A DNA stretch of 64,000 nt from a virus (taxonomy: Duplodnaviria; Heunggongvirae; Uroviricota; Caudoviricetes). Position numbers: made by a program. Each line of letters opens with the position of its first letter. Positions within the stretch are counted from its first letter, which is position 1. The stretch lies in the IMG/VR virus record IMGVR_UViG_2718218322_000002, one strand, 5' to 3'. This document shows, piece after piece, positions 24,001 through 27,000 of this stretch.

Positions 24001-27000
24001 AGTTAGTGCTGGCGAGCCTCGGTGGGCTGGTTTCCTGTGCGGCAAAGGTTCATTTCAAAGAGTAGGTACACGCTATGAAATCATTAACCCTCTTCAATCA
24101 ACCAATCCGTATCGGTGAAGATGGCATGATCTGCCTCACTGATATGTGGAAAGCCAGTGGTAAAAGTGAATCTGAATCTCCGTACCACTACCTGCGAAAC
24201 AAGCAGACCAAAGAGTTCTTGGCTGAGCTGGAGAAAAACCACGAATCTGTGGTTTTTACGGAACGCGGTGCGCACGGTGGAACTTATGGCGGAAAGTTCG
24301 TTGCTTATGATTACGCAGCATGGCTAAACCCCGGATTTAAATATGCAGCCTATAAAGTCCTCGATGATTACTTCACCGGAGAGCTTCATCATCGGAACAG
24401 CTTAAGTGCGCAGCTCAACATGAAATGTCATGAGTTTGATCAGAAAAAAGACATGGCGAGCTTCTGTGGACAAGGCCTCGCGGCATGGCGCTACACGAAA
24501 CCTGGTTTGATCGCTGAAATTAACTCCCTGGCTAACCAGTTGCAGATTTCGATCCCCGGGCTTCCGGGATGAGTGATCGTGTCATTGAATGCGCCTCCAG
24601 AGCGGGGCGCGACTTCTCAGAGTTCATGAAAGGCGAGAAGGGTATGATGGAAGCATTGGCCTCGGTGGATGAGTTTGGCGAGCAGCTGCGCCTCAACGGC
24701 TGTGTCAATCATCACTTTGTTAGCTACATGATGCGGAACTCGATCATGCAGGCATTCATGGACATGGCAAAAGCCGAGAGGAAAGAAGAGCGCCGGCGTA
24801 AGCGAGCGGAAGCAAAAGCGAAGTAGCCATTACAAAGCCCATCTACTGGTGGGCTTGATAATGGCTTATACCCTACACGGGATAACTTAACTGATATCCC
24901 TTTTAACGGATAAAGGTATTCAAGCCTGACACATCATGCGCTGTATCGTCGCTGTATTTCCGCATTAACCATGACCGTAGCCCGACGGGGAATTCCTTCT
25001 GCGCGAGTGTGCGGGGATAATCAAAAACGATACACACCGGGGTTTACCGCGTAAACGGAGCGCGGCGTTCTCCCCTCATGGTCGCCCGTCCGGTGCGATG
25101 GTGGAAGAAACTGGAATCTGTTCAATAAAAAAACTGCCGTGTTGGAGTCACAGCAGTAATGTACTGATTGGGTAGAAGATTATTATTGTTATGCTTTATT
25201 TTTATTCTATATGGCTGATTATTTCAATTCGGAATTAATACAGCTAATGTCTGTGAGTTTTTATAAATTCAGCAATATAAAGAAATAGTTATATGAACAG
25301 CCATCGCAGAGCATACTGTGTATCATTCTTTTTTATAGTCAACTGACGGGCATATTTTATGTCTGCTGCCAGCTCCCGGCGGCAAGATTCAATGACCCAC
25401 GCAGAAAAATTTTCTGAACCTTTCTGGTCAAGAGCGATGTTAATTTGTTCAATCATCTGGTTTGGAAATCGGATGTTGCGGGTTGTTGTTCTGCGGGGCC
25501 GGTTTTTCGATGACATTTTCTTTCCTCTGGTGACAAGCTATATGGCGAGGATTTTACATGGCTGTGCTTCGTACGTTACCGGGCAGAATCAAAACTCTGA
25601 ACACCCGGCGGGTGAATATTCTGAAGGGTGAACAGCGTCGTGTCAGTGGCAGTGCACGTGTTTCCCTCAAGCGTCATATCTGGCTCAGGGATGCCGGGCA
25701 GTGCTGTCACTGTGGTCGTGTGGTTGACCTCTGTGACAGTGAACTCGATCACCGAATTGCACTTCAGTTCGGTGGTGGTAATGAGGAGACGAATCTCTGG
25801 ACGCTCTGTACCGAATGCCATCGACAAAAGTCTGCTCGTGAAGCGGCGGGTGGTATGCCGGACCCGACGCTGCCGGAGGTGTCCGGAGGTCATGGCAGGG
25901 CAGACGATATCATCGGACTGTGACCCGCCCCGGGGGGGGGGGATCATCCGGCGAAAAAAACGATCGCCCCGGACACCGCCCCCCGTCTCATGCAGAGAAA
26001 AAATTCCTGTTTCAGGCCAGTTAACATGTTAACTGGCTGCCCGGGCATTTTTTCGGTTTTTATCTTTATTATTCAGTTTGTTGTGCGAAAAAAATGTTAA
26101 CTGGCTTTTTCAGCAAATGTTAACCAGGCAGCAGTTAACATTTGCGGCATGAGACGCCGGGAAAAATGGGCTGAACCATACCCGGCTGAGTGCGTTATGG
26201 ACCCGGGAGGAGGCTGTGCTGACAACGCAAAAACGAAAATTTGCGCTGGCGCTCATGTCCGGGAAAAACAAAACAGCGTCAGCCATTGCCGCCGGTTATT
26301 CGGCGAAGACCGCCAGGGTTAAAGGCTCGCAGCTGGCAAAAGATCCGGAGGTGCTCGCGTTTATAGCCCGTAAACAGTGCGAAACGGTGGAGGTGGATGA
26401 GGTTCCTGTTTACCGGCAGAAAAAATCAGAGCAGGAGGATAAACCCCGTCGCCGTGAGGTGGCTGCAATACCACAGCCGGACGAAAACAATCCGGAGATG
26501 CCTCCGCCCGCGGTGATATCTCATGGTATTGAATATATGGAGGATGGTCTTCCCGATCCGGTGAAAGCTATGGGGCAGATCCTGGTGGAAAACCTGATAA
26601 TTGACCCGAAACTGGCACTGGATGCGGCCTGGCGACTGGCGCAGTTCACACACCATAAAAAAGGCGATGCCGGTAAAAAATCGGCAAAAGGTGATGCCGC
26701 GAAAAAAGCGGCTAACCGTTTTGCGGTGCCACCACCTCCCCGGCTGGTGGTGAATAACCAGAATGAGGAAAGCGGATGATACCTGTATGGAGCACGGCAT
26801 GTCCGGACTGGGCAGAGCGCCTGAAAAAGGGGCTGTCGATTATTCCGGCTCCGATTTATCCGGACCAGGCTGCACATGCACTGGCGATTTTTAAACAACT
26901 GCGAATTGTGGATGCACCGGGTAGCCCGACATTCGGGGAGTCCTGTGCACCGTGGGTGTTTGACCTGGTGGCGGCCCTGTTTGGCTCCTACGATGCGCAG

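Follow-up and report, generated by a model that had tools for sequence, protein, structure and literature searches.

A candidate cos site with a G-rich box and GTTAAC repeats between the HNH and small terminase genes of a Stx-type prophage

What is the function of the DNA that separates an HNH endonuclease gene from the small terminase gene in the Caudoviricetes record IMGVR_UViG_2718218322_000002? In the 64,000 nucleotides of this record that were analysed (hereafter the window), the interval 25924-26215 between the two genes holds a run of 11 G and a cluster of GTTAAC repeats, and a preliminary description had proposed it as the region of the cohesive-end site (cos) and of terminase binding. 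Comparison of this interval with related phages, compact prophages and a satellite indicates that it almost certainly contains cos. The best explanation overall, which we consider reasonably probable, is that positions 25932-26141 form the complete cos site of an HK97-style, HNH-assisted lambdoid Stx-type prophage (BP-4795/1717/2851 family). The cut itself appears to lie in neither of the two features that had been flagged, but in a C-rich decamer between the G-run and the palindrome formed by the first repeats.

The predicted cut site and the genes around it

Where is the DNA cut? Zhang et al. 2021 sequenced virions of the Stx1 phage Lys8385Vzw and, using PhageTerm, reported 3′ cohesive ends with the cos sequence CGCCCCCCCT (PMC7946995). 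Lys8385Vzw is 97% identical to the window and its mapped junction aligns to 25986|25987, inside the HNH–terS spacer, which bears out the proposed location of cos. In its record (MT225100) the sequence ends in ...CCGGACACCGCCCCCCCT (...GGACACCGCCCCCCCT) and starts with CTCACGCAGAGAAAAAATTCCCGTTTCAGGGCAGTTAACATGTTAACTGG (CTCACGCAGAGAAAAAATT...). By homology to this mapped end, the nick site (cosN) of the window is very probably the decamer CGCCCCCCGT at 25977..25986 on the plus strand, a predicted 10-nt 3′ cohesive end with the cut at 25986/25987. Counted from the decamer, the G-run lies 34 nt to the left and the first GTTAAC 33 nt to the right.

A family scan of viral contigs found this spacer at 65 loci, with 56 unique sequences among them. 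The decamer occurs among the family loci as CGCGCCCCCT (38 loci), as the window type CGCCCCCCGT (19) and as the Lys8385Vzw type CGCCCCCCCT (4); a literature search with the decamer strings returned unrelated papers alone. The sequences on either side of the cut are conserved over a wider range. GGACAC, the left flank at 25971..25976 (plus strand), is invariant in the family, in the satellite and in the compact relatives described below. The right flank with its A-tract, CTCATGCAGAGAAAAAATT (25987..26005, plus strand; +1..+19 counted from the cut), is conserved in the satellite, in ten enterobacterial prophages and, as CTCACGCGCAGAAAATTTT, in Burkholderia phage Bcep176, and is absent from Pseudomonas phage D3, whose small terminase (TerS) is unrelated.

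Three further DNA ends independently agree with this position of cos and thereby support it. The record of Bcep176 carries an identical 10 nt at both ends, and the copy on the terS side is directly followed by CTCACGCGCAGAAAATTTTCCC (CTCACGCGCAG), homologous to CTCATGCAGAGAAAAAATTCC in the window; such a 10-nt terminal redundancy is consistent with 3′-protruding ends of about 10 nt. The record of D3 ends in GGACACCGCGCCCCCA, which includes the GGACAC flank and is a near-match to GGACACCGCGCCCCCT of the family. Finally, a complete 10.7-kb isolate contig (L073; IMGVR_UViG_2681813226_000009) starts at TCTCACGCAGAG, at most 1 nt from the mapped left end, consistent with a physical end of packaged or cut phage DNA in that culture.

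The surroundings of the spacer are those of a widespread prophage family. Positions 25558-26800 are 93–98% identical to 94 phage records of the BP-4795/1717/2851/YYZ-2008 and Stx1a/Stx2c prophage family, and an 86-nt piece with the G-run is matched in 266 of 5426 complete E. coli genomes, in up to three copies per genome. Profile matches place the repeats between an HNH gene and a small terminase gene, as the preliminary description had them, and the order HNH-terS-terL is the one expected for an HNH-dependent cos. The HNH gene occupies 25558..25923 on the plus strand (PF01844, E=1.4e-6; stop TGA at 25921-25923). Its product is 59–69% identical to the HNH proteins adjoining the same cos in the ten enterobacterial prophages and 34% identical to that of D3 (E=2e-8), and judging by its sequence and its place just before cos, as in HK97-like phages, it would be a packaging accessory nuclease. 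terS (26216..26779, plus strand; start GTG-CTG-ACA) encodes a small terminase with an N-terminal helix-turn-helix (PF03592 Terminase_2, E=1.3e-8, residues 2-57). The N-terminus weakly matches the DNA-binding domain of the SF6 small terminase (4zc3/2cmp/3zqp, at marginal E-values of 0.2-0.85), and the protein is 49% identical to the TerS of Salmonella phage SP-016, with the N-terminal 60 residues best conserved. terL (26776..28437, plus strand; PF03354, PF20441) encodes the large terminase with its ATPase and nuclease. Its identity to TerL of the compact enterobacterial relatives is 64–67% where these are full-length and 85% over a partial Citrobacter match; it is 55% to a Burkholderia phage TerL and about 21–22% to the TerL of D3 and SfIV.

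The terS leader (26146..26215, plus strand), with the ribosome-binding site GGGAGGAGG at 26205-26213, lies outside the packaging cassette as delimited below. In four family members (L069, L070, L094, L114) it has strongly diverged, with about 30 positions changed within 26143-26215, while the repeats are intact, and it is absent from the satellite cassette. Further downstream, the prohead protease/major capsid fusion gene is split at about 29500-29502 by a 1-nt deletion (open reading frames 28501-29724 and 29643-30437), where the window reads GGCAGT-GGCGCGG and the relatives (12 listed of 30 full-length ones) read GGCAGTGGGCGCGG. Either the prophage is defective or a base-call error occurred in a short G-run.

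The G-rich box

Is the G-run a mere oddity of this record? The G11 directly after the HNH stop, at 25932..25942 on the plus strand, reads as it had been reported. No other homopolymer in the window exceeds 8 nt, and chance alone would give about 0.04 such runs. An identical 86-nt stretch including the G11 is present in 59 complete E. coli genomes, for instance that of O26:H11 strain 11368, so the run is a real inherited allele, and the suspicion that it marks a hotspot of sequencing or assembly error can be set aside. The other half of that suspicion, slipped-strand variability, holds: the run measures about G6 to G11 in the 56 unique family sequences, with the window and L069 among the longest. 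Slippage shifts the length of the run within 6–11 G, but the run is never lost among the relatives.

A G-run of G6-G9 at 33–35 nt from cosN is also found in ten other enterobacterial genera, in SP-016 and in the satellite, and comparable boxes occur in five phages with an HNH-type cos. The box reads GGGCAGGGGGGGGG in HK97 (32 nt to the last 10 nt of the record, its right end), GGGGTGGGGCGGG in D3 (30 nt to the terminal decamer), GGGGAGGGGCGGG in SfIV (31 nt to TGCCCGCCCC, the decamer reported for SfI), GGGGAGGGGGGAG in phiE125 (30 nt to the decamer) and GGGGAGGGGG in Bcep176 (33 nt to the decamer). In these five phages it is 10–13 nt long and usually followed by TCAAA/ATCA. A G-rich box at a fixed 30–35 nt from the decamer is in this way common to every relative examined, including phages with distant or unrelated terminases, and the G-run of the window is, as far as the alignments tell, a lineage-specific homopolymeric form of this conserved element. 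From its position, the box might act in the termination of packaging, as a cosQ-like signal or as a pause or docking site, although this is the least certain step of our proposal and we put it forward tentatively, with slightly more doubt than confidence. The searchable literature returned no description of a G-rich box in HNH-type cos sites (a herpesvirus review only), but older HK97 and D3 papers fall outside that search and a prior description is possible.

Two observations concern individual copies of the run. In the PPompW prophages an IS110-family element, ISEc20, lies inside the G-run (L002, 1546-3004; junction at about window position 25938), with G7 on its left and G5-ATCATCC on its right, which suggests that G-runs are a target of ISEc20. 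In these prophages the DNA between the tRNA genes and cos lacks the lysis genes and HNH, so that cos-terS-terL is kept but HNH is lost. The chromosome of E. coli O103 RM8385, the host of Lys8385Vzw, has two copies of the cos region, one of them with the exact G11, whereas the induced Stx1 phage has G7; as two prophages of the same packaging type reside in this strain, they could cross-package.

The GTTAAC sites in phages and in a satellite

To the right of the cut, the first two GTTAAC hexamers are embedded in a perfect palindrome, GCCAGTTAACATGTTAACTGGC, at 26016..26037, which is 22 bp long rather than the 20 bp originally given, with fully complementary arms. The hexamers occupy 26020-26025 (+34) and 26028-26033 (+42). 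The three further TGTTAAC(T/C)(A/G)G sites that had been noted are also present, except that the third misses the last base of this consensus. Distal site 1, ATGTTAACTGG (26094..26104, plus strand; hexamer at +110), has a core that does not vary in the family and is also kept in the satellite, and distal site 2, ATGTTAACCAG (26117..26127, plus strand; +133), is identical to the satellite at 10 of 10 positions. Distal site 3, ATGTTAACTGC (26131..26141, minus strand; +148), forms an inverted repeat with site 2 and is likewise conserved in the satellite, where the cassette ends about 12 bp beyond it. The proximal pair and the distal sites are separated by a spacer rich in T- and A-tracts (26038..26093), which is possibly intrinsically bent and is 64% identical to the satellite, as against 92% for the motif blocks.

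The clustering of these sites is not expected by chance. Five of the six occurrences of TGTTAAC on either strand of the window fall within 121 bp, and random placement of six sites gave no case with five within 125 bp in 200,000 trials. The hexamer cores are the same in all 56 unique family sequences, and changes within the sites are confined to the flanking bases 26102, 26104 and 26126. Selecting loci by the palindrome could have biased the conservation of its 14-bp core, and this was checked with the independent anchor GCAGAGAAAAAATTMC: all family loci that it returned were already in the palindrome set, all with the exact 14-bp core, and its 57 new matches were unrelated. We consider it somewhat probable, from the arrangement and conservation of the hexamers, that they are bound by TerS as a cosB-like array with the proximal pair as its core. 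A resemblance of the central GTTAAC to the TrpR operator was dropped as the flanking half-site bases mismatch.

How did the array arise? A protein-guided scan of genome contigs with TerS gave no confirmed relative, and a DNA pattern scan for the cos core, with one genome per species, was used instead. It located the core in prophages of Kosakonia, Enterobacter, Citrobacter, Atlantibacter, Buttiauxella and Entomohabitans, as well as in Salmonella phage FSL SP-016. These relatives are compact, with HNH, a run of G6-G8, 33–35 nt, GGACAC and the decamer, CTCAYGCRCAGAAAAAAT, a ribosome-binding site and terS at +40, so that only about 40 bp and the +34/+42 pair separate the cut from terS. GTTAAC or a version with one mismatch is present at +42 in all 11 relatives, the window and the satellite, and a GTTAAC-like hexamer is present at +34 in every one of the 13 lineages compared except Kosakonia (ATAAAC); the pair occurs as GTAAAC-AT-GTTAAC, GTTAAC-GT-GTTAAC and GTTAAC-GT-GTTTAC. 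The comparison points to four conserved blocks, namely the G-rich box 33–35 nt before the cut, GGACAC with the decamer, the A-tract at +1..+19 and the GTTAAC pair at +34/+42.

In the compact phages the second hexamer supplies terS codons 2-3 (TTA ACA) and overlaps the start, ATG/GTG-TTA-ACA, which makes the palindrome of the window the homologue of an ancestral terS start. The +34/+42 pair is ancestral, and the E. coli family has gained about 190 bp with three hexamers (+110, +133 and +148); this expansion is seen in the E. coli family only. There, terS starts with GTG-CTG-ACA, its TTA leucine codon having become CTG with the start uncoupled from the site. The GC-rich Bcep176 keeps TTA within a TGTTAA...TTAACA inverted repeat at +35..+51. 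As the rare TTA is kept in Bcep176 and the compact relatives and replaced once the start is uncoupled, the hexamers seem to be constrained at the DNA level beyond their coding role. A 24-codon open reading frame (MLTGCPGIFSVFIFIIQFVVRKKC) runs from an ATG at 26026 inside the palindrome to 26098-26100, a relic of the ancestral terS start, and is probably a meaningless remnant of the expansion.

The same signal occurs in a satellite of about 11 kb (L086, equivalent to L128), with no HNH gene upstream and no terS downstream. This satellite encodes an integrase, an Ash-like protein, DUF4222, a D5-type primase, SSB and lambda-like major head and decoration proteins, and no terminase genes were found on its contig. 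Its Stx-family cassette lies at 10697-10910, and it also carries the lambda-type cosN GGGCGGCGACCT at 9514-9525 (plus strand) with a second copy on the minus strand. With two lambda-type cosN copies and a complete Stx-family cassette, the satellite could use two unrelated helper packaging systems. Among 80 relatives of the satellite head gene, 67 have a lambda-type cosN, and L128, L139 and L155 have the Stx-family cassette in addition. A search of plasmids for cos-carrying members returned prophage-like or misassigned records only.

The borders of the cassette were set by comparison with sister satellites. Homology to the sisters stops on the left at the G-run and begins again on the right some 12 bp beyond the last GTTAAC. 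The captured unit of about 222 bp is therefore bounded by the G-run and the last hexamer, and leaves out the HNH 3′ end and the terS leader. Blocks defined beforehand from the window, the literature and the Salmonella phage, without use of the satellite (the G-run; GGACAC, decamer and A-tract; the five sites), are identical between window and satellite at 88 of 96 positions (92%), compared with 65 of 117 (56%) in the spacers (Fisher p=2e-9).

The two halves of the site seem to follow different proteins. D3 shares the left side with the window (G-box, GGACAC and decamer) and has an HNH protein of 34% identity (E=2e-8), while its right side is unrelated, as is its TerS, and its TerL is 21% identical. 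Bcep176 shows the opposite pattern: the right side is shared (the A-tract block and a GTTAAC-like pair), with TerS at 37% identity and TerL at 55% (in the close relative vB_CB2a), whereas the decamer is different and the HNH protein barely similar (E=0.057). These opposite patterns fit a division of labour in which TerS reads the right flank and HNH assists in reading the nick region, and they hint that decamer specificity follows the HNH protein.

Proposed mechanism, alternatives and known systems

We propose the following sequence of events. A TerS oligomer would bind the GTTAAC hexamers through its N-terminal helix-turn-helix domains, much as the R sites of lambda cosB are bound, contacting the proximal pair and the three distal sites of the E. 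coli family across a T-tract spacer, which may allow the DNA to wrap. Bound TerS would place TerL and HNH on the decamer, where terminase and HNH would introduce staggered nicks at CGCCCCCCGT, located by homology, to leave 10-nt 3′ cohesive ends. Packaging would start towards terS, with the DNA to the right of the cut entering first. The next cos would be reached from the HNH side, so that the motor would meet the G-box 35–45 bp before the nick site; TerS on the far side would block the motor and cleavage would follow. The G-box could contribute to this termination either as a cosQ-like signal or as a docking or pause site for TerL or HNH.

Several points weigh against this account. The phage with mapped ends has CGCCCCCCCT where the window has CGCCCCCCGT, a difference of one base, and we infer from sequence both cleavage in this prophage and protein binding at every GTTAAC site. 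The frameshifted head gene means that the prophage's own machinery may not use its cos. With only 8 bp between their starts, the proximal hexamers would seat two helix-turn-helix domains in an unusual geometry, and GTTAAC is itself palindromic, which makes the recognition unit uncertain. By analogy with HK97, TerS could bind chiefly at the A-tract block and not at the hexamers, although the HK97 TerS belongs to a different family. In the compact relatives the +42 hexamer is conserved partly because it encodes Leu-Thr, and only two phages underlie the co-variation argument. The satellite, for its part, may have acquired its cassette recently from a phage that has not been sampled, and the pattern of conservation would then reflect constraint in the phage and not in the satellite.

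In one alternative, which we consider unlikely, the interval is a cos but the hexamers are bound by TerL, HNH or a DNA-bending host protein, with TerS on the A-tract at +1..+19 only. The HK97 small terminase indeed binds a single 15-bp A-tract site close to the cut, at +15..+29 (PMC11331095), the A-tract block is conserved as far as Burkholderia, and the 8-bp spacing is awkward for a pair of helix-turn-helix domains. However, the window TerS is a helix-turn-helix Terminase_2 protein and not of the HK97 type, and the hexamer motif tracks TerS relatedness, being degenerate in Bcep176 (TerS 37% identical) and absent from D3, with an unrelated TerS, despite a related HNH and a near-identical cosN. 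Nor was a match to the integration host factor (IHF) consensus WATCAANNNNTTR with up to one mismatch found in 25924-26215.

Could the repeats instead serve no packaging role? That they control transcription or translation of terS and the late operon, as operator, promoter, terminator or RNA structure, would suit autoregulation in the compact relatives, where the proximal pair overlaps the terS start, and the window has a weak terminator-like hairpin with a T-run at 26041-26066 and a minus-strand promoter-like match made of the repeats. Yet the satellite keeps the five hexamers with neither terS nor a head operon downstream, and counts of promoter and terminator matches are within the chance range, so that we regard such a role as very improbable. 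Two specific forms of it were rejected: a Rho-independent terminator, as the GCCCGGGC/T-run hairpin has a stem of only 5 bp and is not conserved in the satellite, and a riboswitch-like RNA structure, as the RNA folds no better than shuffled sequences (z=-1.6). It is similarly improbable, in our view, that the stretch of about 190 bp merely records neutral duplications of the terS 5′ end, that the G-run is just a mutable homopolymer, and that neither adds a function to the ancestral compact cos. The compact relatives do manage with about 40 bp and the +34/+42 pair, the extra sites share an extended identity, ATGTTAACTGGCT, suggestive of duplication, and the G-run varies from 6 to 11. But neutral drift does not fit hexamer cores that stay the same in all 56 unique sequences although the leader and the adjacent bases change, nor three distal hexamers and a G-run that are kept at matching positions in the satellite across spacers of 56% identity, nor a G-rich box at a fixed distance in phages with unrelated terminases.

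Returning to a complete, HNH-assisted cos site with TerS-bound hexamers, its parts can be combined into a broader reading, about which we are rather doubtful but which we think worth stating. The G-box would be a general termination signal 30–35 nt upstream of the nick, a cosQ analogue or a TerL/HNH pause or docking site, in HNH-dependent 3′-cos phages with unrelated TerS (HK97, D3, SfIV, phiE125, Bcep176 and the Stx family); cosN specificity would follow HNH and the right flank TerS; and E. coli satellites with lambda-type cos copies and this cassette would hijack both Stx-type and lambda-type helpers.

The prophage family in question carries stx1 and stx2 in many lineages of Shiga toxin-producing E. 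coli. Knowing the full cis packaging signal, beyond the decamer reported so far, tells which prophages are still packageable, how a functional relative can mobilise defective prophages and satellites, and which satellites might interfere with Stx-phage production. The G-rich box and the +34/+42 pair are in addition concrete and cheap targets for work on cos recognition and termination by HNH-assisted terminases, processes that are only partly understood for HK97-type systems. The position of cos in this phage family has already been published, whereas the hexamer array with its fixed +34/+42 pair, the conserved G-box and the capture of the cassette by a satellite appear to be undescribed.

How does the site compare with known packaging systems? 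It shares with the cos sites of HK97, D3, SfI/SfIV/SfV, phiE125 and Bcep176 the order HNH-cos-terS-terL and, as predicted for the window, a C-rich 10-nt 3′ overhang in the HNH-terS spacer, together with an A/T tract just right of the cut and a G-rich box 30–35 nt to its left; with D3 it shares GGACACCGCGCCCCC almost exactly. The HNH protein of HK97, gp74, is known to be needed for cos cleavage or to stimulate it (Kala 2014, as cited in PMC11331095). The window departs from these phages in its TerS, a Terminase_2 protein with an N-terminal helix-turn-helix unlike HK97 gp1 or D3 orf1, and in its G box, which is a pure homopolymer of variable length. HK97 also has no repeated hexamers beside its one TerS site (PMC11331095).

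The likeness to lambda cos is one of analogy, not homology. Both have an upstream termination element (a putative one in the window), a nick site and short repeats in both orientations before the small-terminase gene (in lambda cosQ-cosN-cosB, with R3, I1, R2 and R1), and the five conserved GTTAAC hexamers between cosN and terS take the position of the lambda TerS-binding repeats, where TerS binding is predicted here. Lambda differs in its 12-nt 5′ overhang of another sequence, its winged-helix TerS (Nu1), its independence of HNH and its IHF site I1; its cosN, GGGCGGCGACCT, is absent from 25924-26215, where the decamer CGCCCCCCGT is found instead. With the G1P proteins of SPP1 and SF6, the window TerS has in common the PF03592 family and an N-terminal helix-turn-helix DNA-binding domain. 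The small terminases of SPP1 and SF6 recognise several short repeats, wrapping or bending the DNA. Packaging in these phages is headful (pac), has no HNH partner and leaves no defined cohesive ends, whereas fixed cohesive ends have been reported for the near-identical Lys8385Vzw.

Finally, L086, L139 and L155 resemble other cos-carrying satellites, such as the E. coli phage-inducible chromosomal island EcCICFT073, P4 and the cos-type Staphylococcus aureus pathogenicity islands, in having a helper-type cos copy without adjacent terminase genes. Satellites are known to copy cis elements of the helper cos, and EcCICFT073 keeps lambda cosQ and cosN but has cosB replaced, with Rpp retargeting TerS (PMC6739421). 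The L086-type satellites retain the putative cosB hexamers and so, unlike EcCICFT073, would use the helper TerS unmodified. Set beside these systems, the element is a cos of the HNH-assisted, HK97-style 3′ class, ordinary in kind and moderately interesting in its details.

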